64,000 bases of DNA from Deltaproteobacteria bacterium (GCA_040218735.1 JAVJQW010000006.1:1-64000); one strand, 5' to 3'; numbered from the stretch's first letter, positions 192 through 30,489 are shown. The notes: generated from the letters alone by a model not told the origin. Numbers and translations: made by a program.

Positions 192-2861
192 CTACGGCGC
201 GATCCGGTACCGAATCACCAGCCTCGCGCCACCAAGACACGTCTGCACGGCCGTCACGTTGTGGATCCTCAGCGCCCACGTTCCCACCGGGTCCATCGCG
301 TTGAAGTCGTCGAGGGAGTCGAGGCTGGGGTGGAGGGGGGAGATGTGAGGGACCCAGAAGTTGGCGGAGATGACCGCCGACTGATCGAACACGACGGTGA
401 ACAGGCCGTTGAAGTTGAGCGTGTCCCAATCCGTGATGTCGATCAGCCGAACGGAGGTGCCCGCCTTGTCCAACCACAGCCAGAGGTAAGGCGTGAGGAC
501 GCCGAACCCCCACGGGGGATGACACGTGGTGCTGTCGTTGAACGAGAAGTCCACCTCGACATCGACATCCGTCACGACGATCGCGACGTCACCGAGGACG
601 GGCGGGACATCGATCGACGCGGCGACGGCCGGTGACGCCATCGGCCCGAATGAGGGAGATGGGCCGAACCACTCCGCCTCGATCACGCCCGAGAGCGACG
701 TCACCGGGAGCGCCGACGTCGTCATCCCGTTCGGCGCCGTCGCGGTCACGTTTGCGAAGCCCTCGGCGACGCCGAGCAAGATACCGCGGCGGCCCACCGA
801 CGAATCGACGCTCGCGACCGCGGGAGTGTCGCTGTTGAACGTCAGCGAGGTCGTGATCGGATGGACGGCGCCGTTCGAGAACGTGCCCGCGACTTCGAGC
901 TGACCTTCCGCGCTCACCACCACGACAGTGCTCGTGCTCGTGAAGTCGAGAGACAGGAGCGTCGCGTTCGCGACGGTGATCGGCGCGGACGCCGACAGCC
1001 CCACGGCGGTCGCGGTGATCGCCGTCGTTCCCGCTCCCTGCGCAGTGAGTCGGCCGAACGTGTTGCCGAGCTGTCCGACCGTAGCCACGGTGGGATCCTG
1101 CACCGTCCAGGTGGTGGCCTCGGTGACGTCCTCCGAGTGGCCGTCGTTGAAGTGCGCCGTCACCTGCAGGGGCGCCGTCGCGAGCGGCGCGAGCGTGGGC
1201 GTCGGCGCGATCTCCAGCGCGACCGGCACCACCGCGACGAAGGCGAGTGACAAGGACCCGGTGCCCCCGCTCGTCCCGATGCCGTGCGTGGGGTGGTAGG
1301 CGTCGACGACGCACGCGCCCGGCGCGACTGCGGTCGCGAGCCCCGAGGCGTCGATCGACGCGAGCCCGGGGGTACACGACAGGGCGACCTCGGTCGTCAC
1401 GTCGCGATCTTGGTCGGTGAAGTGCCCCACGACCGCGAGCTGCAGAGACTCACCGACGAACGCCGTCGTCGCGCTGGACACCACGGTGAGCGCGTTCAGC
1501 TCGGCCGGCGTCACCGTGACCGTCGTCCGCGTCGAGATTCCCGACGCCACGTCCTCGGCGGTCACGAACGTCGACCCCACGGCGACCGGGTTCAGCGTGC
1601 CATTCGTGTCGACCGTCGCGACCGACGGTGTCGCCGAGGACCAAGTCACCTGCTGCGTGACATCCCGCTCCGAGCCGTCGCTGAAGATCCCCGTCGCCGT
1701 GAGCGCGACCGGTGTGCCGAGCGGCGTCGTCGCGCCTTCGATCCGGAGCCACACGAGGACCGCCGGGCCCACGTCGATCTGCACCGGCGCGGAGGTCACG
1801 CCGTCGAGCGTCGCGGCGATTCGCGCGGCTCCGACCCCGACCAAGCGCACGACGCCCTCGTCGACCGTCGCGACGTCGGGTCGGTCGGTCGTCCACGTCG
1901 AATCATCCGTGACGTCGCGGTGGGTGCCGTCGCGAAGCTCGGCGCGCGCTCGCAGCGCGCGGACGTTGCCCACGTAGCCGGGCGCGACGTTCCCGGTGAT
2001 CTCGAGCGATGCGATCGAAGCCGGTACGATCTCCAGGTCGAGCGACGCCGTCTGGTCCGCGTACCGCGCTTCGATGGTGACGGGCCCCTCACCGATCGCT
2101 TCGAGCCAGCCCTCGTTCACCCGTGCGGCCGAGCTCGGACGAACCGACCACGTCGCCTCGCTCGCGACGTCCTCGACGGCGCCGTCGGAGTAGCGCGCTC
2201 GAGCCTCGAGCAAGACGGTTTCGCCCACCTCGACGGCGCTTCGGGTGGAGGTGACGCTGAGGCCTGTCACCGTCGCCGGTAGCACTTCCACCGTAGCGCG
2301 CGCGACGTGGTCGCCGAGGGTCGCCGTGACGTCGGTGCGGCCGACAGCGTCGCCGGTGACGCTTCCGGCATCGACGCTCACAACCTGTGGGTCGTCTACG
2401 CTCCACTGGACCCGCTCGGTGACGTCCTCGGTTCGCTCGTCCGCGTAGGTCGCGATCGCTGTTAGCGTCTCGGTCGTCCCCGCGTGTATCTCGACGGAGC
2501 CCGGCGTGACTTCGAGCCCGACGACCCCGGCCGCCTCGATCTGGACCTCGAGGAGTGCTTCGAGCTCGCCGAGGATCGCTCGGACGTCGGTCCGTCCGGG
2601 CGCGACGGCTTCGAGCTCTGTCGCCGAGACCGTGCGCCACTTCTGCGCGTCGTAGCGCCACTCGACCTCGTTCGTTACGTCGTCCGTCGTGCCGTCGGAC
2701 CGGATCCGCTGCGCGGCGAGTCGGATGTGTTCACCGACGCGCGGCGACGCCGGCGCGATGGAGACCTCCAGCGCCTCCGGGGGCCCGCGCTCGGGGGCTG
2801 CCGGGGCTCCACAGGCCACGAGGCCAGCGATCCCCAGGAACGTGGCGCGCCCGAGTCCCAC
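192..2861 (-). CDS. Big_2 (bacterial Ig-like group 2) repeat lipoprotein with C-terminal proprotein-convertase P-like domain
   Basis: About 8 repeats of the type DVT..V.WS...P.VATV...G...G...ITAT; lipobox GLVAC; C-terminal LDDFNAMDPVGTWALRI. Start uncertain (GTG 2861; ORF open to 2921). Confidence 0.8.
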   Translation of the reverse strand: MGLGRATFLGIAGLVACGAPAAPERGPPEALEVSIAPASPRVGEHIRLAAQRIRSDGTTDDVTNEVEWRYDAQKWRTVSATELEAVAPGRTDVRAILGELEALLEVQIEAAGVVGLEVTPGSVEIHAGTTETLTAIATYADERTEDVTERVQWSVDDPQVVSVDAGSVTGDAVGRTDVTATLGDHVARATVEVLPATVTGLSVTSTRSAVEVGETVLLEARARYSDGAVEDVASEATWSVRPSSAARVNEGWLEAIGEGPVTIEARYADQTASLDLEIVPASIASLEITGNVAPGYVGNVRALRARAELRDGTHRDVTDDSTWTTDRPDVATVDEGVVRLVGVGAARIAATLDGVTSAPVQIDVGPAVLVWLRIEGATTPLGTPVALTATGIFSDGSERDVTQQVTWSSATPSVATVDTNGTLNPVAVGSTFVTAEDVASGISTRTTVTVTPAELNALTVVSSATTAFVGESLQLAVVGHFTDQDRDVTTEVALSCTPGLASIDASGLATAVAPGACVVDAYHPTHGIGTSGGTGSLSLAFVAVVPVALEIAPTPTLAPLATAPLQVTAHFNDGHSEDVTEATTWTVQDPTVATVGQLGNTFGRLTAQGAGTTAITATAVGLSASAPITVANATLLSLDFTSTSTVVVVSAEGQLEVAGTFSNGAVHPITTSLTFNSDTPAVASVDSSVGRRGILLGVAEGFANVTATAPNGMTTSALPVTSLSGVIEAEWFGPSPSFGPMASPAVAASIDVPPVLGDVAIVVTDVDVEVDFSFNDSTTCHPPWGFGVLTPYLWLWLDKAGTSVRLIDITDWDTLNFNGLFTVVFDQSAVISANFWVPHISPLHPSLDSLDDFNAMDPVGTWALRIHNVTAVQTCLGGARLVIRYRIAP

Positions 2862-2944
2862 GAGCCCTACAGTGCCGGCACGCTCGGATCCGTTCAATCG
2901 CCGGTGCGATCGCCAACACACTCGGCCCGGTTGTACGCCCCTCC

Positions 2945-4051
2945 ATGCACGCGAAAATCCTGCTCCTGCCGATAGCGGCCCTCGTTTCCATCCCCGACAC
3001 CGCCGACGCCTGCGGCGGGTTCTTCTGCAGTCAGGCGCCGGTCCTCCAGACGGCCGAGCGCATCGTGTTCGAGGTCGACGTCGAACAGGTCACCGCGTAC
3101 GTGCAGCTGCAGTACGTCGGTGACGACTTCAACTTCGCCTGGATCGTGCCGGTGCCCTCGACCCCGCAGATCGAGGTCGGCGTCGGACAGGCGATGTTCG
3201 ACGCGCTCGACCGGCAGACGCGGCCACAGTTCGTGGCGCAGGCCGCCGTGTTCGCGTCCGACGAGGAGGCTGCCGGCTGCGGCGGCGGAGGGTTCGACGC
3301 GTCGCCGTGGCTGACCTCTCGCTACGTCCCCGCGCCCGAGGTGAACGTCTACGCGCAGGAGCGCGTCGGCCCCTACGACGCTGTGGTGCTCGACGCCGAG
3401 GACGCGCGCGACCTCAACGACTGGCTCGGCATCAACGGGTACACGCTGGTGCAGGGCTCGGATTCGATCGTCCAGGAGTACCTCGACGACGGGATGAAGC
3501 TGCTCGCGCTCAAGCTCGCGCCCGGGGAGGGCGTCGAGGCGATCGAGCCGGTGAAGTTGACCTACGAGAACCGCGACGGGTGCGCACAGATTCCGGTGAA
3601 GCTGACCGCGATCGCGGCGACGCCCGCGCTGCAGATCACCACGTGGGTCTTCGGGCCGGGGCGCGCGGCGCCGATGAACTTCGAGGAGGCCGAGCTCGAC
3701 CTTTCGCGCGCCTTCGACGACGCGAGTTATCGCACCGCGCTCGCCGCGGGTGTGAACGCCGCGCCGAACGGACACGGCGTCGTCACGGAGTACGCGCGGC
3801 CCAGCGCGTACCTCGACGCCGCTGGGGATCCGGAGCTCGAAGCGTTGCTCGCGCGCAACGCTTACGTCACGCGCATCAGCACCGAGCTCGACCCGGCGGA
3901 GATGACCGTCGATCCCGAGTTCACGATCGACGCTTCGCTGCCGGACGTATCGAACGAGATCCAGGGCGGTCGTCGGCTGGCGCTCACGACCAACATGACC
4001 TTCGGTTTCCTCGCCCTGTACCTGCTCGCGCGTCGGCGGTGGTCGCGATGA
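2945..4051 (+). CDS. DUF2330 domain secreted protein
   Basis: Signal peptide, then ACGGFFC...QTAERIVF, FAWIVPVP, VGPYDAVVL, WLGINGY; C-terminal TM segment + RRR. Confidence 0.85.
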   Translation: MHAKILLLPIAALVSIPDTADACGGFFCSQAPVLQTAERIVFEVDVEQVTAYVQLQYVGDDFNFAWIVPVPSTPQIEVGVGQAMFDALDRQTRPQFVAQAAVFASDEEAAGCGGGGFDASPWLTSRYVPAPEVNVYAQERVGPYDAVVLDAEDARDLNDWLGINGYTLVQGSDSIVQEYLDDGMKLLALKLAPGEGVEAIEPVKLTYENRDGCAQIPVKLTAIAATPALQITTWVFGPGRAAPMNFEEAELDLSRAFDDASYRTALAAGVNAAPNGHGVVTEYARPSAYLDAAGDPELEALLARNAYVTRISTELDPAEMTVDPEFTIDASLPDVSNEIQGGRRLALTTNMTFGFLALYLLARRRWSR

Positions 4052-4446
4052 GGCGTTGGGTGTTCGCGCTGCTGTTGTCGTTGTGCGCGTGCGGCGGCGA
4101 GGAGTCGGCGGGCTCGGCGCCGGTCGTCGAGGGCCTCACGCTCTCGCGGACCGACGTGCGGCGCGGCGTGGAGTTCTTCGCGTCCGCGGTGGTGATGGAC
4201 GTGGACGGAGATCTCGACGAGGCCTACGCGACGTTCCAGCTCGACAGCGTCGACGGCGACACTTCGGTCGAGAGCTCGGTGTACCCGTGGGACACGGAGC
4301 CGGGGGCGACACAGATCGACGTGACGGCCGGTCTGACGCTCTTCGGCAACGCGGATCTCGGGGTCTACGAGCTGTTGATGACGGTCGTGGACGACGCAGG
4401 TCACGCCTCGCGGGCCGCACGCGTGCGCCTCGTCGTCGAGCAGTGA
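4048..4446 (+). CDS. hypothetical lipoprotein (Ig-like)
   Basis: ATGA overlap with the upstream stop; MRRWVFALLLSLCACGG lipobox; D.DGD motif. Confidence 0.7.
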   Translation: MRRWVFALLLSLCACGGEESAGSAPVVEGLTLSRTDVRRGVEFFASAVVMDVDGDLDEAYATFQLDSVDGDTSVESSVYPWDTEPGATQIDVTAGLTLFGNADLGVYELLMTVVDDAGHASRAARVRLVVEQ

Positions 4447-4495
4447 GTGCGTTCGGACGCACCGGTGCCCAACCACGTAGAACCGTCGCTAGAGC

Positions 4496-4525
4496 CCCAT
4501 ACGGGCCATTCTTTCGAAATCTGAC
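4496..4525 (-). promoter_or_regulatory. putative ECF sigma promoter GTCAGATT-N14-CGTATGGG, divergent from the sigma gene
   Basis: Same bipartite motif and spacing as the copies at 10308 and 13750. Confidence 0.55.
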
Positions 4526-4564
4526 GCACCAATTTCGAGCCTCGCCGATATATGATCGTCGAGG

Positions 4565-5188
4565 GTGAGGGGCGTCGCGGAGTTGAAACGGGACGAGCGG
4601 GCGATCGTCATCGCCGCGCTCGATGGTGACACCGAGGCCATGCGCCAGCTGGTGTCGATCGTCCGTCCTGTGATTCAGGCCGAGGTCGCGTGGACGCTTC
4701 GGGACCGCGCACCGATCGGTCGCGGGCGAGATCCCAAGCAGGAGGTTCAGGACCTCGTGCAAGACGTCTTCATCGCGCTCCTCGAAAAGGACGGTCACCG
4801 ACTGCGCGCGTGGGATCCGCAGCGCGGCCGAAGCCTCGCGAGCTTCGTGAAGCTGCTCGCGCGTCGTCGAGTGACGGACGCGTTGCGTTCACGCCCGCGT
4901 TCGCCGTGGACCGAAGAACCGGCGGGCCTCGAAGACATCGGTGAGGTCGCCACGCCCAGCCACGCGGATCACGTCGCAGCGCGCATCGCGGTTCAGCGTG
5001 TCGTGTCGAAGCTGCGCGAGACGATGTCGGAACGCAGCACGGAGATCTTCTCCGCGCTGTACCTCGAAGAGGCCACGGTGGAAGAGGTCTGCGAGAGTCA
5101 CGACCTCAGTCGCGACGCACTCTACGCGTGGCGCGCTCGTTTCAAACGAAGCGTGCGTCGTCTGTCGATGTTGTGGGACGCCGAATGA
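4565..5188 (+). CDS. ECF-type RNA polymerase sigma-70 factor
   Basis: Region 2 EVQDLVQDVFIALL...LRAWDPQRGRSLASFV; region 4 LYLEEATVEEVCESHDLSRDALYAWRAR. Confidence 0.85.
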   Translation: MRGVAELKRDERAIVIAALDGDTEAMRQLVSIVRPVIQAEVAWTLRDRAPIGRGRDPKQEVQDLVQDVFIALLEKDGHRLRAWDPQRGRSLASFVKLLARRRVTDALRSRPRSPWTEEPAGLEDIGEVATPSHADHVAARIAVQRVVSKLRETMSERSTEIFSALYLEEATVEEVCESHDLSRDALYAWRARFKRSVRRLSMLWDAE

Positions 5189-5871
5189 TGGTCGCCGCCG
5201 ACAACGGTCCTCCCGAGATCTGGGCGCGGGTTGCCGCTGGCACGGCGACGCCCTCGGAGCTCGCGGCGCTCGAAGCCGAGGCCCAACACGATCCGTCCGT
5301 GCGTGCGATGCTCGAAGCGTGTCGCCCGCCGGGCGCCACCGCGGACGAGCGCCTCGCGGGGAACCTGTCGCGGGGCATACGCCAGCGGAAGGGGCGGTCG
5401 CGTCGTCGCTGGGCCGGGGTGTCGGTCGCGATGGCGGTGGCGGCCTCCGCGGTGCTGTGGATCGCGCTGCCCCCGAAGGAGTCGCTCCCCGCGTACGCCA
5501 TCGAGGTCGGCCGCGGAGAGTCCGAGATGCGCGGCGGCGATGCGCCCGAGCTGACGGAGCTGTTCCCGTCGAGTCGACTTCGTCTCGTGTTGCGGCCTGC
5601 GGCGCCGCCGTCCGGTCGCGTCGTCTTCACCGCGTTCGTCGAAACGGACCAGGGCTTGGAGCCCTGGCCGGCGCCATTGGAGATCTCCGAGCGCGGCGCG
5701 GCACGCCTCGACGAACGCGTGGGGACGCTCTGGCCGAACCGAACGGGTGACCTCACGCTCGTGTTCCTCGTTGGTCGTAGAGCCGCGACGCTCGAGGAGG
5801 CCAAGACGCGATCCACCGAGGTGTGGCGACGCGTCGAGCACCCGATCCGAATCCGCCCGGAGCACGAGTGA
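5185..5871 (+). CDS. putative single-pass membrane anti-sigma factor
   Basis: ATGA overlap with the sigma gene; N-terminal cytoplasmic part, basic patch, TM segment (VSVAMAVAASAVLWIAL), extracytoplasmic beta domain (LPAY...MRG). Confidence 0.65.
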   Translation: MMVAADNGPPEIWARVAAGTATPSELAALEAEAQHDPSVRAMLEACRPPGATADERLAGNLSRGIRQRKGRSRRRWAGVSVAMAVAASAVLWIALPPKESLPAYAIEVGRGESEMRGGDAPELTELFPSSRLRLVLRPAAPPSGRVVFTAFVETDQGLEPWPAPLEISERGAARLDERVGTLWPNRTGDLTLVFLVGRRAATLEEAKTRSTEVWRRVEHPIRIRPEHE

Positions 5872-8351
5872 CGGCGCTTCGATCGACGGTGCTCGTGGCT
5901 GCGCTCGCGGTCGCGCCGGGTTGTCGCTGCGCCGATAATCGCGCGCCGCTCCCGACCCGTTTTGCGGGGTGCAGCCATGTCCTCGACGCGTCGCAGTGCC
6001 TCGTGCCCTCGGAGGGCGCTGACCTGACGCTGTGGACGGCGGCGCCGTGTGGTGTGTTGTTCGCGCCGGACGAGGCGACGAAGTTGGAGGTCGACGGCGG
6101 CTGTCGCGTCGCGCTGACCGCGGTGACCGAGGACGTCGTGCTCGCAACGACGACCTCCGTGTTCACGCTCCGCGTGAGCACTGCGCCGTCACCGACCCAC
6201 GCTGGCGCCGCCCAGAGCGCGCGCGCGCGGGAGCGACTCGGCGCCGGTGACGCCGAGGACGCCGTCGCGTTGTTGGATGCTGCGTCTGCCGCGCACCGCG
6301 CGGAGGGCGTGATCTCGGACGCCGTCCTGGATCTCCAAGCGGCGGCCTACGCGCTCGCGGTGTCGCTGCATCGGCTCGCCGACGCCGAGGCGCGGCTCGA
6401 TGCCGCCGAACCGATGCTCGCCGACTTCCCGGAGGGCGCCGCGGCGCAGCCCTACTACCGGGGGCTCGTCGCGAAGCTCGCGAACGATCCGATCTCCGCG
6501 CAGCACGACTTCGAACGCGCGCGCACGGCGATGCATCGCCTGGGGCTCGCGCGCTTCGCACGCGGCGTGGCGGCGCAGGAGGTGATCGTCCTCCGTTCCG
6601 CAGGTCGAGGTGAGGAGGCGGACGCGCTGCTGGCTTCGCTCGACGACGGCGCGGCCGAAGGCTGCGACCGGGTACGGTTGCTCCAGAACCTGAGCTGGGC
6701 CGCGCTCCTCGACGCCGACGCCCACGGACGGTCACTCCCTGCGGAGGTGCGGGCGAGGCTCGAAGAAGCGAATCGTCTGCAGGCTCGGCACGTCTGCGAT
6801 CGCCTCGCGGACCGCGGGAGCTTGGCGCTCGCGACCGCGCTCGCGGCGCTGCTGACCGACGATATCGTGACGGCGCGTGAAGCGCTCGAACGTGCGCTGG
6901 AGCGTACCCCGGATCCGGAGCTTCGCTACTGGCGCGCGGAGCTGCTCGCGCGCGTCGCCCATGAGCGCGGAGATACGCGCGCCGCGCTCGAACACCTGCG
7001 TCGCGCGGAGGCCGATGCGGAGCGGAGCCTCTTCATGGCGGCGGTGTGGCGCGCGCGGTCGTGGCGAGCGCGGGTGCATCTCGGGGCAGGCGATCGTGTC
7101 GCAGCGATGGACGCGCTCCTCGCAGCGGAGCGCGCGCTCGACGACGAGGTCCTACGGCTCCCGCTGGAAGCGGGCGGGGCCGCGCTGCTCGCGAACCGTC
7201 GTTCGAGCGCGCTCGCGTTGGCGCGGCTTCACCTCGAATCGGGCGAGCTCCATGAGGCGCTGTGCGTGATGCGCGCCGCGCGTGCGCGTCGACTGGTCGA
7301 CGTCGCGCAGACCCGCCGATTGTCGAACCTCACCCGCGCCGAGCGCCTCCGGTGGTACGAGGCGATCGGTGATCTCGCCTCGGCGCGCGCGGAGCTCGCC
7401 GCGAGTGAACGCGGAGCGTGGGACTTGTCCGCCGCGGAGCGAAGCCTCCTCGCCGCCGACCAAGCGGCCCTCCGGGAGCGCATGCGCGGCGCGCTTCGGG
7501 ATGCGATCGCAGTCGTGCAGTCGCGGCCGACGCCGTTTGTGTGTCGACCGCCCGCGCCGGGTGAGCTGGTGCTCGGTGTCTTTCCGCGTGGCGAGGGTTC
7601 GTGGTGGTTCGCAGCCGACGCATCGGGTGTGCAGGTCGTCGATGCGCTGACTGACGCTCCGACGCTGACGCCGTTCGACGAGGTGCTCGAACGCAACGCG
7701 TCCGTACGTGTCCTCGCCGACGGTGCGGCCCGAGCGGTCGACGTCCACCGACTCGAATGGCGCGGCGAACCGCTCGTGGCAAATCGCCCGGTGGTGTACG
7801 GCCTCGACCTCGGGCCGCTCGCGGAGGCGGACGAGGGGCGGCGGGCCGTCGTCGTCGGGGACCCGCGCGGCAACCTGGCGGGTGCCCGCGACGAGCTCGT
7901 GCGCGTGGCGGCTGCACTGGAGGCGTCGGGGTGGACCGTCGAGGTCCTCCGCGATCGCGACGCGACCGTCGAGCGTGTGCGGGACGCGATGCAGGAGGCA
8001 TCGCTGCTGCACTTCGCCGGACACGCGGACAGCCGCGAGCGCGCACCCGACCAGCTGCTGCTCGCCGACGGAGCGCTGACGGTCGAAGACGTCCTCACCG
8101 CCGAGCGCGTCCCGCGCCGCGTCGTGCTCTCGGGGTGTCGGACTTCGCGAGGTTCGAACGGGATCGATGTCGCGCAAGCCTTCTTGCTCGCGGGGGCCGA
8201 ACAGGTCGTCGCATCTTCCGAAGACCTTCCGGACCGATCGACCGCGGCGATGATCGCTGCGCTGTACACGTCGCCGTCGATCGATCTGTTGCGAGGTCTT
8301 CACGACGCGCCGGGCGCCGCACAGAGCCCGCTGCGCGTATGGGTTCGCTGA
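5868..8351 (+). CDS. TPR-CHAT domain (caspase-like) protease, possibly a lipoprotein
   Basis: GTGA overlap; helical TPR-like repeats; CHAT motifs VVGDPRGNLAGA, LLHFAGHA (His) and VVLSGC (Cys); N-terminal hydrophobic stretch ending APGC. Confidence 0.85.
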   Translation: MTALRSTVLVAALAVAPGCRCADNRAPLPTRFAGCSHVLDASQCLVPSEGADLTLWTAAPCGVLFAPDEATKLEVDGGCRVALTAVTEDVVLATTTSVFTLRVSTAPSPTHAGAAQSARARERLGAGDAEDAVALLDAASAAHRAEGVISDAVLDLQAAAYALAVSLHRLADAEARLDAAEPMLADFPEGAAAQPYYRGLVAKLANDPISAQHDFERARTAMHRLGLARFARGVAAQEVIVLRSAGRGEEADALLASLDDGAAEGCDRVRLLQNLSWAALLDADAHGRSLPAEVRARLEEANRLQARHVCDRLADRGSLALATALAALLTDDIVTAREALERALERTPDPELRYWRAELLARVAHERGDTRAALEHLRRAEADAERSLFMAAVWRARSWRARVHLGAGDRVAAMDALLAAERALDDEVLRLPLEAGGAALLANRRSSALALARLHLESGELHEALCVMRAARARRLVDVAQTRRLSNLTRAERLRWYEAIGDLASARAELAASERGAWDLSAAERSLLAADQAALRERMRGALRDAIAVVQSRPTPFVCRPPAPGELVLGVFPRGEGSWWFAADASGVQVVDALTDAPTLTPFDEVLERNASVRVLADGAARAVDVHRLEWRGEPLVANRPVVYGLDLGPLAEADEGRRAVVVGDPRGNLAGARDELVRVAAALEASGWTVEVLRDRDATVERVRDAMQEASLLHFAGHADSRERAPDQLLLADGALTVEDVLTAERVPRRVVLSGCRTSRGSNGIDVAQAFLLAGAEQVVASSEDLPDRSTAAMIAALYTSPSIDLLRGLHDAPGAAQSPLRVWVR

Positions 8352-8363
8352 AAAGGAGTCGTC

Positions 8364-10307
8364 ATGTCTGCCCCTCACGCTCTACGTTTCCGAGTCGTCC
8401 TCGCCGCCTTGCTCGCCGGGGCGTGTACGCAGTCCGCGGAGCCCGTCGCGAGCACGCAGGACGCGGTGAGCACCGCCGCACCGCTGCGCGTCGGGGTGAA
8501 GGCGACGTCCGCCTCCGCGTGCCCGGCGCCGCTCGCTTCGGTCGGGGGCGAGTGGGTGCCGATGCCCGCGTTGCCGTTCCCGCTCGATCGTTTCTGCTCT
8601 TACGCGTGGACCACACCGACGGGCGCGCCCGAGGACGCAGCGTCGCTCGACAACCTGGGCCTTCAGGGGGTGGAGGAGGCGGACGAGGGGCTCGTCGCTT
8701 CGATGAGCGGGCCGCAGGGCGCGTCGACCTCGCTCGACCTTGGCGGCCTCGTGACGTCGATGCGCACGTCGTTGTTCAGCGCGTTTGCGTCTCGCCTCGA
8801 GCTCCCCGCGGCGCCGGTGGTCACGTCCGCGGCGCCGGTCGTTCGCATCGCGTTGGTCGACACCGCGCCGAACGGCACAGGCCCGACGAACTCTCCGCAC
8901 GCGCGTGAGCTCGAAGCGCTCGCGCAGGACATCATCTGCTCCGCGGGCGCGGGCTGCGCCGCCGAGATCGAACGGCACCTCGGGTTGCCTCGACTTCAGG
9001 GCGGCGCGGTGGACCTGGTGCGGGGTGGGTACTTCGGTACGCTGCTCGACGTCGCGCGTGGGATCGTGGAGGCAACGAACGCCGCCGCGAGCTCGACGCC
9101 GCAGCCGTGGATCCTCAACCTCAGCCTCGGTTGGGAGGACGCGAAGATGGATGCGGACCTCCCCGCGTCCTACTTCGATCTCGTCACGCAGGACGACGCG
9201 GCGACGAAGCAGGTGCCGGCTCCGGTGCGCGCGGTCCTCACGGCGCTCACCTACGCGCGCTGCCACGGCGCGTTGATCGTCGCCGCCGCCGGAAACGATC
9301 CGGTGGGACGCGGCCTCTCGACGGGGCCGACCTATCCGGCGGGGTGGTCCGCGCTCCCCGCGCCGACCGTCGCGCAGTGCACGGCGGCGTTCGGTGTCGC
9401 GCACCACGCGGGGGTCGGACCGCTGCTCGTCGCGGCGAGTGGTCTCGCGGACGGTTACAAGCCGGCGCCGAACCAGCGCACGGGCGCGCGCGCCGAGCTC
9501 AACACACCCGCCACCGCGGTCATCGCGACGACGGGCCGGCACGTGCTCACGGGGAGCTCGATCGCGGCGCTGACCGTGTCTGCAGTCGCCGCCACCGTGT
9601 GGGCCGTGAACCCGTCCTGGGGACCTCACGACGTCTACGATCACCTCTACGGCAGCGCACGTCCGATGGGCGTAGCCGCCGAGCTCTGCGGTCCGAACGG
9701 TTGCGGAGGTGCTCGGGTGATCTCGGCGTGCCTCGCGCAGCAGAAGGCGTGCACCGTCACGGGCAACTGTCCGGCGTCGACCTGCAACCTGGCTCCGACG
9801 AACGCGTGGACGGCGGCCATGTTCCAAGCGGGGCGCGACGCGCTCCTGGAGGGGGGCGGGACGTTCGGGTCGCTCGCCGGGGTGTTCACGTCCACGGCGT
9901 CGTTCGGTGGCTCGTGCGGCGCGGCGGAGTTCCTCGCCGTCCCGGGCGCGGAGTGCCCGTACGACGAGCCGCCCGCGTTCGAGAATCAGAGCTCGGGTCC
10001 GCAGCCCGGCACGCCGATCTGTCCGGCGTGTTACGTCACGTACCTCGGCGGCGAGATCTATGTGCACCTGTGGTTGTCGGAGGAGATCCCAGGCAACCAG
10101 GTGTTCGCCCCGATGGTGGTCGTCGAGGACGATCGCGAGCGGAGGAAGTACGTCCTCACCGGTCCGTTACCTCCGGGCGCGTCGGCGATCCTTCACCTCG
10201 GCAACCCCGGTATGGCTCCGCAGCTCACGCGTGCGCACTTCGTCTACGAGCTCGAAGAAAATGCGAAGCGCTACCTGGCGGCCGAACCCATCCTGATCGA
10301 ACAGTGA
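8364..10307 (+). CDS. S8 (subtilisin-like) serine peptidase lipoprotein
   Basis: RBS aaggag; lipobox LAGAC; IALVDT (Asp), SPHA (His), ILNLSLGW, IVAAAGND (oxyanion Asn), LTGSSIAA (Ser); Cys-rich C-terminus PQPGTPICPAC. Confidence 0.75.
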   Translation: MSAPHALRFRVVLAALLAGACTQSAEPVASTQDAVSTAAPLRVGVKATSASACPAPLASVGGEWVPMPALPFPLDRFCSYAWTTPTGAPEDAASLDNLGLQGVEEADEGLVASMSGPQGASTSLDLGGLVTSMRTSLFSAFASRLELPAAPVVTSAAPVVRIALVDTAPNGTGPTNSPHARELEALAQDIICSAGAGCAAEIERHLGLPRLQGGAVDLVRGGYFGTLLDVARGIVEATNAAASSTPQPWILNLSLGWEDAKMDADLPASYFDLVTQDDAATKQVPAPVRAVLTALTYARCHGALIVAAAGNDPVGRGLSTGPTYPAGWSALPAPTVAQCTAAFGVAHHAGVGPLLVAASGLADGYKPAPNQRTGARAELNTPATAVIATTGRHVLTGSSIAALTVSAVAATVWAVNPSWGPHDVYDHLYGSARPMGVAAELCGPNGCGGARVISACLAQQKACTVTGNCPASTCNLAPTNAWTAAMFQAGRDALLEGGGTFGSLAGVFTSTASFGGSCGAAEFLAVPGAECPYDEPPAFENQSSGPQPGTPICPACYVTYLGGEIYVHLWLSEEIPGNQVFAPMVVVEDDRERRKYVLTGPLPPGASAILHLGNPGMAPQLTRAHFVYELEENAKRYLAAEPILIEQ

Positions 10308-10343: not shown

Positions 10344-13300
10344 ATGCGCAGACTCACAACGCTCCTCTTACTCACCTTCCCATCCGCAGCGTTCGCCGCG
10401 CCGACCCCGGCGCAGCTCGCGCGAACGCCGGTCGCGATTGCACCACCGCCGTCTTCGGCGCCGTTCACGAACCTCGACAATGTCGAGGGGGACTACGTGA
10501 ACCTCGCACCCGTCCCGGTGCGCCCGATGATCTACGTGAACGACGCCGCCGGGCCGCACGTGTACGCCCTGAACGTGTACCTCAACGCGATTCAGCACCT
10601 CGACGCGACGCAGACGATCGTCCAGTCGTTTCGCACTTTGTCGTCGCCCGTGGCGATCGCGCGCTACGTCGCGCCCTCTGGACCCAACCCGGACCGCTTG
10701 CTCGTCGTCTGCCAGCACGCCGATGCGCTCGCCGTGCACGACCGACAAACCGGGCAGCTCCTGGAGATCGTCTACCTCCCGGCGCAGCCCGCGGACATCG
10801 TCGTCGACGCTGCCAACGCCCGGGCGTTCGTCTCGTCGATCGGTGAGGACGCGGTCGTGGAGATTGATCTGTCCAACCTCACCGCACCCCCGGTTCGCTA
10901 CGCGATCCCGTCGCGCAAGCCGATGTTCCTGTCGATCGCGCCCGGCGGCGAGGTGCTCGTCGCGCCGATGCTCTCGGGCAACAACTCGGGCGTCGACTAC
11001 CTCGCGGACAACAACGGCTCCAAGCAGCACACGCTGAACGCCCACGCGGACACTGGCGGGATCCTCGACCTCGCGGATCCGACCGTCTCCAACGGCGGGC
11101 TCCCCGACGAGGATCTCTTCTTCATCGATCGCGCTGCGGGGGTGGCGCGCCCGGTCGCCCGCGGAACGGGGACCGTGTTGCTCGCGCAGCAGGTCGTGTC
11201 CTCGAGCACCGGCGCGCTGTTCCTGTGGCAGCTCAACGTCGACATGAACAACAAGGATCCGAACAAACAGAGCCGCCCCGCGATCCAAGGGGAGATCGCG
11301 TTCAACCGCGTGACACGGATGCCGATCACCTTGCCGCCGCCCGCGACGCCGCCGACGGCGCAGCCGCAGCACTTCATTCAGCTCGACGACACCAACCCCA
11401 CGCAGCCCGGGATTCAGTACAACCGCGCGCGCTCCGTCGGCCACCCCTACGCGATGCACGTCTCGCCGACGGGTTACGTCCTGATCGCCGGGCTGCTCTC
11501 CGACAACCTCACCATCCTCGACCCCGCGGGGAACTTCGTGATCGAGTGGGACCTCCCGGACGGTTGTGTACCGCGCCAGGTCATGACGGATCTGTCCGAG
11601 CAGGTCATCTACACGTACTGCTCGGGGCTCAACACGATCGACGTCGATCTCCTCGGCGTCCCGCCGACGGACCTGACCTCGTACTCTCTCGGATTCGACC
11701 CGACGCCGACGAACATTCGGATCGGGCGCATCCTCTTCTTCGACGGTTCGTTCTCCGAGCACAACAACGCTTCGTGCGCGACCTGCCACGTGGAGGGTGG
11801 CGTCGACTTCGTCGCGTGGAACCTGAGCGAGCCGCTGTTCGATGAGAAGGGGCCGATGACCACGCAGTCGCTGTTCGCGGTGAATCGCACCGGAACGCCC
11901 TATTGGCGCGGCGCGCAGCTCAACGGGCTCCTCGACTTCAACCAGGCGTTCGTCGATCTCATGGGCGGCACCTCGATGACGCCGGCGCAGTTCGCAGACT
12001 TCGAGGCCTTCGTGCACTCCCTCGAGCCGCCACCCAACCCGTACGAAAACGTCCTACGCGTCGTCGACGACAACATCCAGATCCCCGACGAGCTGAGCGC
12101 CTTCGGCCCGATCCCGAACGGCTCGGCGGTGGCGGGGCAGGGGCTCTTCAACGTCGGCTGCGCGAACTGCCACACGATGCCGGTCGGCGGACGTGACGAC
12201 TCGATGTCGACGGGCGTCGGTTTCGGTGAGTTCCAGCAGAACCGCCACTTCATGAAGGTGGGTACGCTGCTGTCCCTCCCCGAGCGTGGCCTTCAGCCGC
12301 CCGTGCAGGTGAGCTTCCCGAACAACCAGATTCGTGACTTCCCACGCCTCGGCGTCGGGATGGCGCACGCCGGCAACCCCGATAACATCTTCGACTTCCT
12401 GCTCCTGTTCGTCGCGGCCGGGCTCCAGCCGACCGTCGACGTCGCGAATTTCCTCTTCCAATTCGACAACGGGCTCGCGCCCTCCACGCGCATCCCCCTC
12501 AAACTCGACGCGACCACGGCCTCTTGGATCCCAAGCCTCATTCAGGCCTACCAGGAGCCTCAGGCGGCGGCGGGGCACTGCGAGGTGGCGGTGTTCGGCG
12601 AGACGACGATCGGGGGTACGCGCCGCGTCGCGGGGTGGGTTCTCGATACGACGGTGAACCCTCCGCAGTACCTCCGTGACGATGGGGTCGCGCAGCCGCT
12701 GTCGTTCTTCGTGACTCAGGCGGTCGCCGGTGACTGGTTCGTCTTCACGGGAGTTCCGGTGGGTACGGCGCGGACCTTTGCCATCGACTTCGATAACGAC
12801 GATTTGCTGAACGCGCTCGAAGTCACAGGTGGGTTGACCAACCCCGACACCGACGGCGACGGGTGGCTCGACGGTCACGAGGTCAACAACGGCGGGGACG
12901 CCCTGAACCCGGCGATCGGGCCGACGGACATCACGCCGCCCAACTTTGCCTTCACCGCCGCGGCGCCGGCGTGGGTGAACGCCAAGAGCGGTCGACTCGG
13001 TTTTGTGACGGACGAGCTCACGGTGTGGGCGCTCTTCCTGACGCCGCCGGCTGGTTCGGGCCTCCCGACCAAGGTGTTCTTCGATGCGAACCCATCGCGT
13101 CGTCACTCGGTGTTGTTCCGTGACCTCAGACCCAACACGACCTACACGACTCAACTCTGGGTTTTCGACCTCGGCAGCAACATGCCGGCGCAGTCGACCG
13201 CGTTCAACCTGACGACGATGCCGCACTCCGACGGGCCTGCGACGGCGGTCGTCGGCGGCTACACGTGGACGGTGAATCAGCTCTCGCCCACGAGCGGGAC

Positions 13301-13739
13301 GTTCACCGTGGACGTGCAGGTGAACCAGAAGACCTCTCTCGGTACGCCGCTTGCGAACCGCGTCGTCGTGGCGCGGGCCGTCGTGGGGGGCAACGTGGCC
13401 GGTCAGACCGGTGGGCCGGGCATCACGACGCCGCTTCCTCCGGACTTCTGTACGAACGGAGTGCCGTACTCGACGTTGCGCGGGGTGGTCGCGGGGCCGT
13501 ACGTGGTTTCGAAGCCGTCGAACGCCGCGGGTGTCGCGCAGCTTCAGTTCACGTTGTCGGGGATTCAGCTGGGAGACCAGATCGACCTCTCGATCGAAGC
13601 GATCGCGGAGTCGAGTGGGAATGTCTGCGCGGCGGTGCCGAACGCCGAAGACTTCAAGAACCAGGTGGGTAACTTCCCGGTGGGTTGGAGTCTCCCGGAC
13701 ACGCAAGCCAGCTTGCGGAGAAGCTCGACGATCTTCTGA
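10344..13739 (+). CDS. secreted beta-propeller + di-haem cytochrome c (bCcP/MauG-like) protein with Ca-binding DxDxDG repeats and FN3-like domain
   Basis: Signal peptide; YVTN-like propeller; haem motifs SCATCH and GCANCH; KGPMTTQSL...PYWRG; DTDGDGWLDGHE; LRPNTTY. Confidence 0.75.
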   Translation: MRRLTTLLLLTFPSAAFAAPTPAQLARTPVAIAPPPSSAPFTNLDNVEGDYVNLAPVPVRPMIYVNDAAGPHVYALNVYLNAIQHLDATQTIVQSFRTLSSPVAIARYVAPSGPNPDRLLVVCQHADALAVHDRQTGQLLEIVYLPAQPADIVVDAANARAFVSSIGEDAVVEIDLSNLTAPPVRYAIPSRKPMFLSIAPGGEVLVAPMLSGNNSGVDYLADNNGSKQHTLNAHADTGGILDLADPTVSNGGLPDEDLFFIDRAAGVARPVARGTGTVLLAQQVVSSSTGALFLWQLNVDMNNKDPNKQSRPAIQGEIAFNRVTRMPITLPPPATPPTAQPQHFIQLDDTNPTQPGIQYNRARSVGHPYAMHVSPTGYVLIAGLLSDNLTILDPAGNFVIEWDLPDGCVPRQVMTDLSEQVIYTYCSGLNTIDVDLLGVPPTDLTSYSLGFDPTPTNIRIGRILFFDGSFSEHNNASCATCHVEGGVDFVAWNLSEPLFDEKGPMTTQSLFAVNRTGTPYWRGAQLNGLLDFNQAFVDLMGGTSMTPAQFADFEAFVHSLEPPPNPYENVLRVVDDNIQIPDELSAFGPIPNGSAVAGQGLFNVGCANCHTMPVGGRDDSMSTGVGFGEFQQNRHFMKVGTLLSLPERGLQPPVQVSFPNNQIRDFPRLGVGMAHAGNPDNIFDFLLLFVAAGLQPTVDVANFLFQFDNGLAPSTRIPLKLDATTASWIPSLIQAYQEPQAAAGHCEVAVFGETTIGGTRRVAGWVLDTTVNPPQYLRDDGVAQPLSFFVTQAVAGDWFVFTGVPVGTARTFAIDFDNDDLLNALEVTGGLTNPDTDGDGWLDGHEVNNGGDALNPAIGPTDITPPNFAFTAAAPAWVNAKSGRLGFVTDELTVWALFLTPPAGSGLPTKVFFDANPSRRHSVLFRDLRPNTTYTTQLWVFDLGSNMPAQSTAFNLTTMPHSDGPATAVVGGYTWTVNQLSPTSGTFTVDVQVNQKTSLGTPLANRVVVARAVVGGNVAGQTGGPGITTPLPPDFCTNGVPYSTLRGVVAGPYVVSKPSNAAGVAQLQFTLSGIQLGDQIDLSIEAIAESSGNVCAAVPNAEDFKNQVGNFPVGWSLPDTQASLRRSSTIF

Positions 13740-21602: not shown

Positions 21603-24600
21603 CTAACGCCGACGCCTCAGCAAGAGGGCCGCGCAGAGGGACAGCGCCCACCAGCCTCCGGACGTTCGCGTCGTTGCGGTGCAGCCGCACGCGTTCACGG
21701 TTTCGAGCGTCTTGATCTCGTCCGTCGGCGCCACGCCCGGGTCGACGCGGATCGTCACGTCCGCGAGATCCATCCCGCCGCGACCGTCCGCGACCTCGAC
21801 GCGGAACTCGAACGTCGCCGACTCCGTGACCTCGGGGGCGACGAAGGACGCCTGCGCCGATTCGCTGTTGGTGAGCTCCACGGTCACGCCGCCGAGCTGC
21901 GTCCAGCGGAACGTGAGCGGGTCGCCGTCGGGATCCGTCGAGGCGCTCGCGTCGAGCACCACCGTGCTCCCGACGCCGACGCTGCGGTCCGAGCCCGCGT
22001 TGGCGACGGGCGGCTCGTTGAGCTGCGGGCTGTCCTCGGGCTCGACCGTGATCGTGACGTCGTCCGTCGCGGTGCCGCCGTTGCCGTCGTCGACGGAGAG
22101 GCGCAGCACGAGCGCGGTGGAGGCCTCGACCGTCGGCGCGACGAACGTCGGCGTCGCCGCGTCGGAGGCGTCGAGCGTGACGTCGCCCATCGCGACACGC
22201 CACGCAAACGTCAGCGTGTCGCCTTCCGGATCCGAGCTGCCGCTGCCGTCGAGCTGCACCGTCGCGCCGGAGCGTACGACCTGGTCGGCGCCCGCGTTCG
22301 CGACCGGCGGCATGTTCGGCGGGCCGACGGTGGTCGGATCGAGGTCGACCTCGAAGGACGCCTGGCGCACCTCGCCGACCTCGCCGGACTGCACGTCGAT
22401 CACCCGCACCGTCCAGCGCCCGGCGGCCTGCTCACCCGTGAAGACGAGCGTGTCGTCGTCGTAGGAGCGCAGGTCCGGGTAGATGCCGTAGATGTCGCGG
22501 CGCGTGGAGGTGTCTTCGGTCTCCAGCGTGACGGTCTGGTCCGTCGGCGACGTCAGCTCGATCCGCACGTGCCCGCGCGCGCGGTGTTTGACGTCGATGT
22601 AGAGCCGGACCGCGCGGACTTCGCCGTTGGCCTGCACGTCGAACGGGAGCTCGAGTCCGGCCGGATCGTCGTCCGGGATCGTGAGCGGCTGCCCCGTCGG
22701 GATGAAGTCGATGCGCTCCATCGAACGCTGAATCGGGTAGTCCGACGCGAGCACGAAGCCCTGCACGAACAGGTCGGGGTCGGTGATCGACGAGGCGCTT
22801 ACGATGACGCCCCAGGTGCCGGCCTCGGGGCTGTCGACGACGACCTGCTCGACGTTGTCGAGGTTGTTGACGCCCGTCGTGGCGTCGTCGAACGGGTTCG
22901 CGGGGTCGAGCACGAAGGGGCGGAACGACTGACCGCTCGGCGCGACGAGCTCCATGTCGAGGTCGTTGAGGAGGCGCCGCTCTTCGGCGCTGTTGAAGAA
23001 CGCGTCGAGCCAGCTGAGCGTGACCTTGAGGTTCGGCGCGTTGGCCGGGACGTCGACGCCGAAGATCATCTGCTCTTTGTCGCGCACCGCGCCGCGCGCG
23101 AGGCGTGTGCCCGGGTCGGCGGCGTCCGCGATGATGAGGTCGGCCGCGGCGCGTGCGTCCGCGTTGCCCCAGCCGAAGCGGTAGTCCGGGCCAGGGTGGA
23201 ACACGTCGACCGCGGTGTGGATCATGATCGCGCGCGACATGTCGGGCGCCCAGCGGCGACCGTTGTTCTCGCGTTTGTAGAGCTGCGAGAGCAGCGCGAG
23301 CATGCCGGTCACGGACGGCGCCGACATGCTGGTGCCGCTCGTCGTGCCGTACTGGTTGCCCGGGTAAGTCGACGTGAGGTTCTGGCCGTTCGCGCAGATG
23401 TCCGGCTTCACGCGGCCGTCGTTCGTGGGGCCGCGCGACGAGAAGCTCGACAGGTCGCCATCGTCTTGGGTCGCGCCGACGACGAGCGCGTTCTTCGCGG
23501 TCGAGTCCGGGGACAGCGAGTCGAAGCCGTAGCGCTCGTCGACGATCTCACTCTGCTGTCCGCTGTTGCCCGCAGACTTCACGGGGAGGAGCAGGAGGTC
23601 GCGCGAGTCGAGGTCGAACTCGAGCGCGACCTGGTTGTAGCCGCCGAACTGATTCACGCTCGAACCCCACGAGTGGTTGTCGTGCTCGTGGTAGAACTCG
23701 TGCTTCGCGACGCGGCGCTCGCCGGTCGGGTTGCCGAAGAACTCGAACGCCACCATCGTAGCCTCCGGCGCGTAGCCGCGGTGCTCGGGGTTCAGGACGC
23801 CGCCGCCGAGGATCGTCCCCGCGGTGTGGGTCGCGTGGGAGCTGACCTGGCCCTGCTCGTAGTTCTGCACGCGGCCTTCGAAGTCAGGGTGGTCCGAGTC
23901 GACGCGACCGCCGTCCCAGTGACCGACGACGACGCCGGTGCCGTCGAGCCCGTACGGCGCGGCGACGAGGTCGACGGCGTTGGAGAGCTGCCGGCTCGCG
24001 AGGTTGTCGAGCTTCTTCGGGTAGTCGAAGCCGATCGACGCGACGTACGGCGACGCCATGAGGCGTTCGAGCAGGAGGTTATCACCGAGGTTGATCGTGC
24101 TCTCCTCGGCGACGGGGGCGTCGAGGTCCGTGGGGAGGCGCAGACCTTCGAGGCGGTCGGCGCCGAGCAACGCGGTGAGCTCTCGGCGGGTCGTCTTCGG
24201 ATAGACCGCGACCCAGAGGGGGTGCGGCAGCGACTCGACCGGTCCGATCCACCCGAGGAGGTCGTGTTCGACGCGATCGATCGGTGCGGCGTCGGCGGTG
24301 CCGACGACGTTCGGCTGCGCGCGCAGCCAGGCCGACGCCTCGGGCGTGTTGGTCGTGCGGAGGAACGTGTAGGCCTTCTTGCCCGCGATCCCGAGGTACC
24401 TCAGGCCGACGTCCTCCGCGGCGCGGACCTGCGCGCGGGTGAGCGCGCGGTCGGTGAAGACGTAGAACGCCTCCTTCTCGGCGGGCAGCGGGACGGCCGA
24501 GTCCTCGGTCACGGTGCGGCCGGGGAATCGAACCTCGGCGGCGACGGCGACGTTACAGGACAGGACCAGTGCGACGGTGAGGCAGCGTTGCAGCACGTAT

Positions 24601-24665: not shown

Positions 24666-24763
24666 TGGAATCTTTCGAATGGTCCGTTGCGGGCGGACGT
24701 TGTGGGACGACTCGTTACATTCTAGCGGGACGAACGTCGCGGTTCCCTTGCAGGTGGTCGCAA

Positions 24764-24790
24764 GCAACGGTGGCGGCGGCGCGCCGATAA
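24764..24790 (+). promoter_or_regulatory. sigma28/FliA-like promoter GCAACGG-N12-GCCGATAA
   Basis: Perfect GCCGATAA -10 element 9 nt before the ATG; identical motif at 42691-42717. Confidence 0.6.
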
Positions 24791-24799
24791 GCCGTGTCG

Positions 24800-30388: not shown

Positions 30389-30489
30389 CACCGTCCCGTC
30401 TACCAAGTTTTTCGGCCGGCGGCCCGAGTCGGGCGGCCCAACTTGGGCCGATCGCCCAGTCTCAGGCCCCCGAGACGCGTCCTCGGGCC

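Follow-up and report, generated by a model that had tools for sequence, protein, structure and literature searches.

A 64,000-nucleotide stretch of DNA from Deltaproteobacteria bacterium (GCA_040218735.1 JAVJQW010000006.1:1-64000), referred to here as the window, contains a cassette of four plus-strand genes within positions 4565-10307. These genes encode an extracytoplasmic function (ECF)-type sigma factor, a single-pass membrane protein, a protease that combines a tetratricopeptide repeat (TPR)-like solenoid with a CHAT domain (TPR-CHAT), and a subtilase of peptidase family S8. The four genes, together with their junctions as read from the sequence, are as follows.

4565..5188, + strand: ECF-type sigma factor, 207 aa; exact start uncertain by some codons
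5185..5871, + strand: single-pass membrane protein, 228 aa, predicted anti-sigma factor; ATG start at 5185
5868..8351, + strand: TPR-CHAT protease, lipoprotein-like, 827 aa; GTG start at 5868
8364..10307, + strand: S8 subtilase, lipoprotein-like, 647 aa; ATG start at 8364
5185..5188, + strand: ATGA start/stop overlap of the sigma factor and membrane protein genes; sigma factor stop at 5186-5188
5868..5871, + strand: GTGA start/stop overlap of the membrane protein and TPR-CHAT genes; membrane protein stop at 5869-5871
8352..8363, + strand: 12-nt spacer between the TPR-CHAT and S8 genes, AAAGGAGTCGTC, containing an AAGGAG-like, ribosome-binding-like site

The gene positions, the two overlaps and the 12-nt gap had all been described in the first-pass annotation of the window, and all are present. 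The start codon of the TPR-CHAT gene (GTG 5868) is the same in the database copy of this protein, which also has 827 aa. The DNA of the window is approximately 70% G+C.

The conservation of this arrangement has been probed by scanning one genome per species with a 9-sequence TPR-CHAT alignment, which yielded 79 related loci. According to their record titles, 36 of these loci are from Acidobacteriota (mostly Thermoanaerobaculia and Holophagales), 29 are from Myxococcota, 9 are labelled 'Deltaproteobacteria', and 5 are other or unnamed. Searches with the window proteins (tblastn) detected homologues of the sigma factor at 63/79 loci (27-52% identity), of the S8 subtilase at 60/79 and of the membrane protein at 25/79. 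Profiles iterated on the loci raised the membrane protein to 67/79 and the S8 subtilase to 62/79, and left the sigma factor unchanged at 63/79. The upstream side was considered testable when at least 2.5 kb was available 5' of the CHAT gene (62 loci) and the downstream side when at least 2.2 kb was available (72 loci), with both flanks available at 58 loci. A sigma factor-membrane protein gene pair is found at 57 of the 62 upstream-testable loci, where it is colinear and adjacent to the CHAT gene (47 loci), divergent (6), convergent and downstream (3), or downstream on the same strand (1). The membrane protein gene directly follows the sigma factor gene at every sigma-bearing locus (63/63). 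The S8 gene lies directly downstream of the CHAT gene at 51/72 testable loci and elsewhere at 5/72; among Acidobacteriota, it is directly downstream at 32 of 33 loci. The exact four-gene colinear order is observed at 36 of the 58 loci with both flanks, a frequency that varies by taxon (Acidobacteriota 24/25, Myxococcota-labelled 7/21, 'Deltaproteobacteria' 3/9, other 2/3).

As a control, the 833 flanking open reading frames (ORFs) that remained after removal of the four families were clustered, and no family occurs at more than 9 of the 79 loci. The flanking genes that were scanned encode kinases, histidine kinases and assorted unrelated enzymes. Since no further flanking family is conserved, the cassette is a self-contained unit in variable surroundings, and its recurrence at 79 loci in two phyla indicates that the arrangement is beyond chance. 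The trio of sigma factor, membrane protein and CHAT genes is the core of the cassette, and the S8 gene is a frequent fourth member. The conservation of gene neighbourhood, which the first-pass annotation had suggested checking across Myxococcota, is therefore borne out, and in Acidobacteriota as well. Cultured carriers include Pyxidicoccus caerfyrddinensis CA032A (locus L034), which has the full cassette, and Sorangium sp. So ce1335 (locus L039).

The product of the first gene passes the TIGR02937 model for ECF-type sigma70 factors (46.9 bits versus a cut-off of 42.9, residues 25-198) and the Sigma70_r2 model (28.5 bits versus a cut-off of 24, E 1.3e-6). As expected of an ECF (group IV) sigma factor, the protein has regions 2 and 4 only, with region 4 seen solely through TIGR02937 and helix-turn-helix matches at residues 165-195. 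The family is divergent, as Sigma70_r2 is reached by 21/61 members and Sigma70_r4_2 by 9/61 (E <= 1e-3). The sole PDB match of the family profile is the Streptomyces sigma factor sigma-ShbA (9ISN/9M84, ECF40; E 1.5e-11). Single-sequence PDB searches with the sigma factor and with TPR-CHAT returned nothing useful, and profiles were required for both.

The membrane protein encoded by the second gene has no Pfam or NCBIfam match. Its anatomy is apparent from an AlphaFold2 model, which has a mean predicted local distance difference test score (pLDDT) of 82.5 and a confident beta-sandwich, and, for the transmembrane helix, from the sequence as well.

5212-5382, + strand: cytoplasmic helices, aa 10-66 (helices 10-18, 23-33, 37-46 and 51-66, pLDDT about 85-95)
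5413-5469, + strand: transmembrane helix, about aa 77-95 (aa 81-94 in the AlphaFold2 model)
5494-5853, + strand: periplasmic Ig-like beta-sandwich, aa 104-223

A cytoplasmic N-terminal region, one transmembrane helix and a periplasmic domain of approximately 130 residues are common to the 64 aligned members of the family, and the cytoplasmic region contains the conserved pattern 'RW..L..G.L...E...L......A.EAFRPLG'. The only folds that Foldseek recovered with this model are generic Ig/filamin-like sandwiches (E about 3e-4), which are uninformative on function. The Atlas feature neighbours of the membrane protein are unnamed clusters from the same two phyla, while lower neighbours (score 0.94) are clusters with zf-HC2 in 63% of their members, a result that provides a lead only. 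In position and topology the protein resembles class I anti-sigma factors (ASD/ZASD), as its gene directly follows the sigma factor gene and it has a single transmembrane helix.

The interaction between the first two proteins has been probed by complex prediction, in which the sigma factor alignment was folded with residues 1-72 of the membrane protein alongside three controls, using our own alignments throughout. The predicted binding has a score of 0.73, compared to 0.00 for the best control. The score taken to mark predicted binding is reached by 116/157 solved complexes and by 2/215 mismatched pairs, counts that are only approximate for the alignments used here. The prediction runs share at least 80% of their contacts, and the pLDDT of the partner is at least 79. 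Thus the sigma/anti-sigma complex that the first-pass annotation had proposed to model receives support at the level of prediction. Results from these models suggest that the N-terminal cytoplasmic helices of the membrane protein bind the sigma factor, and that the membrane protein is likely the anti-sigma partner and represents a dedicated, previously unnamed, anti-sigma-like family.

The third gene encodes a protein with a PF12770 CHAT domain (E 1.2e-21). The AlphaFold2 model of this protein has a mean pLDDT of 89.2 and a predicted template modelling score of 0.88, and together with the sequence it reveals the following features.

5922-5924, + strand: Cys19, the end of the signal/lipobox (N-terminus VTALRSTVLVAALAVAPGC, ...LAVAPGC19)
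aa 30-105: beta-sandwich
aa 112-550: alpha-solenoid (TPR-like)
aa 566-826: CHAT domain
8022-8024, + strand: His719, in the motif LLHFAGHA
8136-8138, + strand: Cys757, in the motif VVLSGCRT

The side chains of His719 and Cys757 are invariant in 37/37 aligned relatives, as are those of Cys35, Cys44, Cys266 and Cys310. The invariant cysteine pairs appear to fit an oxidising, extracytoplasmic location. A HMMER search of 1.84 billion representatives identified 2752 TPR-CHAT relatives at E <= 1e-3, 1535 at E <= 1e-10 and 809 at E <= 1e-30. In nearly all of a set of 154 family proteins, the N-terminus is signal/lipobox-like and precedes a conserved '..VEyAGC..V..GPvC' beta domain, and none of the set has HxxxCxxC in its first 120 residues; a lipobox is recognised in 94/154 by a loose pattern of our own, which is indicative only.

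The S8 subtilase matches PF00082 (E 5.3e-8, 33 bits versus a cut-off of 21.8) over only the C-terminal two thirds of the profile, and matches Sphericase (1EA7) with an E-value of 2.5e-4. The Asp-His-Ser triad and oxyanion Asn that characterise peptidase family S8 are intact, and these residues are conserved among 56 family members.

8424-8426, + strand: lipobox Cys21 (N-terminus MSAPHALRFRVVLAALLAGAC, ...LLAGAC21)
8859-8861, + strand: Asp166, kept in 54/56 family members
8898-8900, + strand: His179, kept in 56/56, in an unusual SPHA context
9294-9296, + strand: oxyanion Asn311, kept in 56/56
9558-9560, + strand: Ser399, kept in 56/56

Eight cysteines of the S8 subtilase are also invariant or nearly so in the same 56 members. 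The cassette of Sorangium sp. So ce1335 (L039, 11626-13278) has no S8 gene, and approximately 0.9 kb downstream of its CHAT gene there is a gene for a trypsin-like peptidase that may substitute for S8 as the second protease. The N-termini of TPR-CHAT and the S8 subtilase each run from a few basic residues through a hydrophobic segment to a cysteine, and both proteins are predicted on this basis to be exported lipoproteins. The intact CHAT His-Cys dyad and the lipoprotein-like N-termini of both proteases, which the first-pass annotation had pointed out, are therefore upheld.

Further insight into the relationship between the membrane protein and TPR-CHAT comes from natural fusions. The whole membrane protein module is joined to the N-terminus of TPR-CHAT in 6/154 family proteins (P0005, P0057, P0120, P0122, P0128 and P0133; hmmsearch E 7e-23 to 3e-51), of which P0005 had given an early hint of fusion in a pairwise alignment with the membrane protein (E 0.002). 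Long, seemingly fused frames at eight loci (L004, L007, L010, L020, L034, L035, L047 and L055) are over-extended ORF artefacts in GC-rich DNA. These eight frames are not fusions, because their upstream parts are out-of-frame translations of the membrane protein gene and the real proteins begin at the signal peptide. The fused arrangement is best illustrated by a locus on an Acidobacteriota contig (L052), the genes of which are listed below.

948-1595: canonical ECF sigma factor (Sigma70_r2, r4_2 and Sigma70_ECF)
1614-5108: fusion protein, 1164 aa, with HLVLCPQC, a transmembrane helix, the Ig-like domain of the window membrane protein and TPR-CHAT, in this order
about 5566-7206: S8 subtilase of the cassette family

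The sequence HLVLCPQC, which fits the HxxxCxxC signature of zinc anti-sigma factors and the CHCC centre known from DdvA, sits in the cytoplasmic part of the fusion, at a position equivalent to that of the cytoplasmic part of the window membrane protein. The sigma factor at L052 is a canonical ECF of a different kind from the window sigma factor. Since the membrane protein and TPR-CHAT form one polypeptide in some relatives, the two are functionally tied. The architecture of L052 therefore suggests that a textbook pair of sigma and anti-sigma factors can be equipped with the periplasmic Ig-like and TPR-CHAT unit, and, judging from these sequences, the unit seems to be portable between different sigma/anti-sigma pairs. 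Fusions of the L052 type are the strongest argument for the anti-sigma part of the window membrane protein.

These observations can be placed beside several known systems. In canonical regulated intramembrane proteolysis, represented by RseA, DegS and RseP, a single-pass anti-sigma factor binds the sigma factor through its cytoplasmic domain, and later cuts are licensed by an initial cut in the periplasm (also summarised in PMC11506125). The cleavage of RseA by DegS is the textbook case of anti-sigma cleavage by a serine site-1 protease. The cassette is similar in having a single-pass anti-sigma candidate with a predicted cytoplasmic sigma-binding domain and a presumed periplasmic first cut. 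In contrast to DegS, the presumed first protease is of the caspase-like cysteine type and is encoded in the cassette, with a second protease (S8) beside it.

The closest structural relative of the window TPR-CHAT is DdvA. A Foldseek search of the PDB with the TPR-CHAT model places DdvA first (8RW5 E 6.6e-13; 8ROT_A E 1.8e-12; 18-19% identity), followed by the TPR-CHATs of Csx29/craspase (8EEY_B E 4.3e-12; others 1e-10 to 1e-9) and then by separases. The TPR-CHAT profile gives the same order (DdvA E 9.3e-11, Csx29-type entries about 2e-5 to 6e-5, separase about 1e-3). All global template modelling scores (TM-scores) are low (0.24-0.39), which is not surprising for solenoids that are long and flexible, and the kinship to DdvA is therefore at the domain level. 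Entries 8ROT and 8RW5 contain DdvA-DdvS, and DdvA is a transmembrane anti-sigma factor of Myxococcus xanthus with a cytoplasmic zinc domain (CHCC centre) and a periplasmic TPR-CHAT (PMC11506125). RseP is kept from acting by the bulky TPR-CHAT for as long as this is in place; DdvA lacking TPR-CHAT becomes exposed to RseP, and cleavage of truncated DdvA by RseP has been shown (PMC11506125). It has been proposed that the CHAT dyad acts as the site-1 protease of DdvA, cutting in trans, and that RseP follows; this CHAT-mediated first cut has not been demonstrated, and the trigger is unknown (PMC11506125). The idea of CHAT cleavage had been raised earlier for DdvA (PMC6061681).

The cassette and the DdvS/DdvA system have several features in common. 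In both, an ECF-type sigma factor is followed by a single-pass membrane partner, and a TPR-CHAT with a His-Cys dyad is present, that of DdvA being periplasmic and that of the window being predicted to be exported. A further peptidase gene lies downstream in the operon, and the proposed logic is the same, with CHAT as the site-1 protease followed by intramembrane proteolysis. Furthermore, the fused relatives of the window pair recreate the architecture of DdvA. Unlike DdvA, which is one polypeptide, the anti-sigma candidate and TPR-CHAT of the window are encoded by two genes with a stop between them, and TPR-CHAT has its own lipoprotein-like signal. The window membrane protein additionally differs in that its cytoplasmic domain lacks both the CHCC/HxxxCxxC zinc motif and any match in Pfam, and in that an Ig-like domain follows the transmembrane helix. 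The sigma factor belongs to a family that does not match DdvS, and there is no CBASS or CRISPR-Cas near the window cassette. While the remaining genes of the ddvS-ddvA operon are an unknown gene and one for a C25-type peptidase (PMC11506125), the downstream peptidase of the window is of family S8. The cassette occurs in Acidobacteriota and Myxococcota, whereas a search for fused DdvA-like forms gave Myxococcota and one Comamonas (PMC11506125). Table S7 of that study lists fused DdvA-like proteins, some of which lack CBASS or CRISPR-Cas flanks, and the portion of its text that was examined makes no mention of Acidobacteria, lipoproteins or subtilisin (PMC11506125).

The first-pass annotation had likened the cassette to the type III-E CRISPR systems. 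This comparison stands with respect to the TPR-CHAT fold and dyad, which match Csx29 (Foldseek E 4e-12 to 1e-9), and with respect to the presence of a protease (Csx29, cleaving Csx30) whose target controls a sigma factor (PMC11506125). However, Csx29 is a more distant match than DdvA, which is the nearest solved relative by both profile and Foldseek, and the presumed substrate in the window is a membrane protein. The craspase (Cas7-11/gRAMP) is cytoplasmic and RNA-guided (PMC11506125), whereas the window has no cas gene and its protease is predicted to be exported.

A second relevant precedent is group ECF54, which is reported to be 100% actinobacterial and whose gene neighbourhood encodes a subtilase, a TPR/CHAT protein and, at +1, a carboxypeptidase-regulatory-like protein; an anti-sigma factor has not been recognised there (PMC7826278). 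Proteolytic control of ECF54 has been suggested from gene context alone (PMC8999054). Compared by description only, the two arrangements share an ECF sigma factor whose neighbours are a subtilase, a TPR-CHAT and, at +1, a beta-sandwich protein (PMC7826278). They differ in that the subtilase precedes CHAT in ECF54, while CHAT precedes S8 in the window; in that the +1 protein of the window has no CarboxypepD_reg match and is predicted to bind the sigma factor; and in their hosts, which are Actinobacteria for ECF54 and Myxococcota and Acidobacteriota for the window-type cassette (PMC7826278). In the part of the ECF classification supplement that was examined, 'CHAT' appears only under ECF54, and the Myxococcales groups ECF210 and ECF216 are described without CHAT or subtilase (PMC7826278). 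Full-text literature searches, which covered the supplement of PMC7826278 in part, yielded only papers on DdvA, craspase, and ECF classification or review, and among these no description of the split cassette was found. Because of the published DdvA model and the ECF54 neighbourhood, the idea is less new than the first-pass annotation assumed. The cassette is best described as a split, S8-bearing variant of the DdvS/DdvA-type switch that is independent of defence islands.

The reading that is favoured here, with about even confidence, is that the four genes form an operon-like, DdvA-type regulated-proteolysis switch in split form. In the proposed mechanism, the sigma factor would first be retained at the membrane through the helical cytoplasmic domain of the 228-aa protein, acting as an anti-sigma factor, while the periplasmic Ig-like domain of this protein would be docked to the lipoprotein TPR-CHAT. 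Next, the His-Cys protease would be switched on by a cue from outside the cytoplasm, which is most likely a protein to which the TPR solenoid binds. The activated CHAT protease would then remove or damage the periplasmic part of the anti-sigma factor (site-1 cleavage). Finally, intramembrane and cytoplasmic proteases would finish the anti-sigma factor and free the sigma factor. The S8 lipoprotein would be a frequent but dispensable accessory, which may mature or activate the CHAT protease or add a second cut. We infer the cleavage of the anti-sigma factor by CHAT and all other proteolytic steps, together with the cue, the sequence of these steps, the regulon and a contribution by a site-2 protease, for which the window revealed no gene. 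The proteolytic switch put forward in the first-pass annotation is thus right in outline and supported in part, by the co-conserved unit, the predicted sigma binding, the intact and exported-looking proteases and the fusions of the membrane protein with CHAT; ligand gating, cleavage of the membrane protein and release of the sigma factor are its presumed steps, and craspase is no longer its closest analogue.

Several results weigh against this reading. At the level of the locus, 5/62 testable loci have no sigma factor-membrane protein pair beside the CHAT gene, the pair is in another orientation in 10/62 (several of them from Myxococcota) and so is not in one operon with the CHAT gene there, and the S8 gene is absent from 16/72. 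Genes that are co-transcribed with a sigma/anti-sigma pair can be targets rather than regulators. At the level of the membrane protein, none of the 64 family members matches an anti-sigma Pfam family, the family profile finds nothing significant in the PDB (best E 0.085), and the window protein has neither an HxxxCxxC zinc motif nor a zf-HC2/RskA profile match. The confident predicted contacts fall on sigma factor residues 18-46, 57-76 and 92-100, which belong to region 2 only, and the predicted-binding score may partly reflect likeness to solved complexes, since sigma/anti-sigma complexes are well represented among solved structures. The match of TPR-CHAT to DdvA has TM-scores of only 0.24-0.26, with a root-mean-square deviation of 28-29 A and 18-19% identity, and the sigma factor is not of the DdvS kind, as DdvS is not matched by the sigma family profile in the PDB at E <= 1e-3. 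A shared -35/-10-like dyad was not found upstream of 62 sigma factor genes (best 6/62 versus a coding-region control maximum of 13/79), so autoregulation is unsupported.

It has also been considered that the S8 subtilase, rather than CHAT, makes the first cut. Here, TPR-CHAT would be a sensor or shield that exposes the anti-sigma factor upon ligand binding, and its dyad would serve self-processing or another substrate. Such a role would follow the precedent of DegS and is consistent with the intact, conserved triad and with the position of the S8 gene directly downstream of CHAT at most loci, including nearly all of those from Acidobacteriota. It is also consistent with the ability of the DdvA TPR-CHAT to block RseP until its removal (PMC11506125). 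The loci without S8 indicate, however, that the subtilase is dispensable, whereas the CHAT dyad is invariant. The second protease furthermore appears interchangeable, because it is of the C25 type in the DdvA operon (PMC11506125) and trypsin-like in the Sorangium locus. Cleavage by S8 as the initiating step is regarded as unlikely.

A similarly low probability is assigned to an arrangement in which the sigma factor and membrane protein form an ordinary sigma/anti-sigma pair, with the Ig-like domain sensing alone, and TPR-CHAT and S8 are products of the regulon rather than parts of a switch. Genes downstream of an ECF/anti-sigma pair are often targets, and regulators and targets are difficult to distinguish by gene context (PMC7826278); the loci where the pair is divergent, convergent or otherwise not colinear with the CHAT gene, and those where S8 is missing, would be explained in this way. 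The joining of the membrane protein and TPR-CHAT in one polypeptide, in the six fused relatives and at L052, is hard to square with a pure target, and the start/stop overlaps between the window genes also count against this arrangement. In addition, the TPR-CHAT of DdvA is the sensor domain of an anti-sigma factor (PMC11506125).

A more ambitious extension of the favoured switch, which is doubtful at present, holds that the cassette represents a widespread, self-contained periplasmic two-protease cascade that destroys a new, zinc-free class of anti-sigma factor, with the TPR solenoid as the receptor, at the cell envelope, for a foreign protein from a phage, prey or competitor. Under the same tentative scheme, S8 would mature TPR-CHAT, or CHAT would fire first and S8 would follow. 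Lastly, it is very improbable that the membrane protein is not an anti-sigma factor and that a co-inherited envelope protease system simply lies beside an unrelated regulator: the protein has no family assignment and no zinc motif in the window copy, but its gene follows the sigma factor gene at all sigma-bearing loci, binding is predicted with clean controls, and the fused relative at L052 carries HxxxCxxC at the equivalent position after an ECF sigma factor.

The surroundings of the cassette are consistent with its description as 'CRISPR-independent' in the first-pass annotation, which is correct for the 64-kb window because cas genes, defence families and CRISPR-like arrays were not found there. 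Neither cas nor defence families turned up in a Pfam scan of 7 proteins around the cassette and 41 further ORFs, PADLOC assigned no defence family to the cassette or to 15 neighbouring ORFs (19 ORFs scanned), and the 64-kb window contains no CRISPR-like array. The sole PADLOC match, a weak subtilase/IetS hit, is to an unrelated S8 protein at 21606-24866 (- strand). This secreted-type protein of 1087 aa, which is not related to the cassette S8 subtilase, combines a proprotein-convertase P-domain with PKD/REJ-like domains. Upstream of the cassette are genes for a Big_2 surface protein (opposite strand), a DUF2330 protein and a small lipoprotein-like ORF. Directly 3' of the cassette, at 10344-13739, is a gene for a protein of 1131 aa whose N-terminus resembles a signal peptide and which contains a di-haem domain similar to MauG/cytochrome c peroxidase. 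The MauG-like protein, the DUF2330 protein and the small lipoprotein were each found at 0/79 related loci in tblastn searches with the window proteins.

Other genes of the window lie further from the cassette. A second ECF sigma factor gene (46307-46936, - strand) is followed by a gene for a 640-aa protein (44535-46457), and the two (44535-46936) are probably another sigma/anti-sigma pair. The middle of the 640-aa protein is derived from an 18/36-nt tandem repeat (45197-45565, approximately 18 copies), which gives GSVAS(S/P) repeats, and the C-terminal part of the protein resembles TPRs. At 51463-52645 are three tandem bactofilin genes (120, 104 and 170 aa). A gene of the carotenoid-oxygenase (RPE65) family at 28907-30931 (- strand) encodes a protein with a 220-aa N-terminal extension. 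Downstream of it, also on the - strand, are genes for a lipocalin-like protein and an aldehyde dehydrogenase, and these genes may form a small apocarotenoid operon.

The split form of the cassette places the presumed protease and the presumed substrate in two proteins. Consequently, a test of cleavage in trans with active-site mutants is straightforward. DdvA is the only studied anti-sigma factor with a periplasmic TPR-CHAT (PMC11506125). This picture is widened here by the size of the TPR-CHAT family (809 representative clusters at E <= 1e-30) and by the cassette, which is found in two phyla and in variable contexts without defence genes, and which brings with it a dedicated, anti-sigma-like family and a dedicated S8 subtilase. 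If the proposed mechanism is true, cleavage by caspase-like proteases would be a general way to initiate anti-sigma proteolysis, in addition to DegS-type and self-cleaving mechanisms. Furthermore, if the cascade reading is true, caspase-like signalling across the membrane would be a general form of transcription control in Myxococcota and Acidobacteriota, rather than a peculiarity of one Myxococcus defence island.

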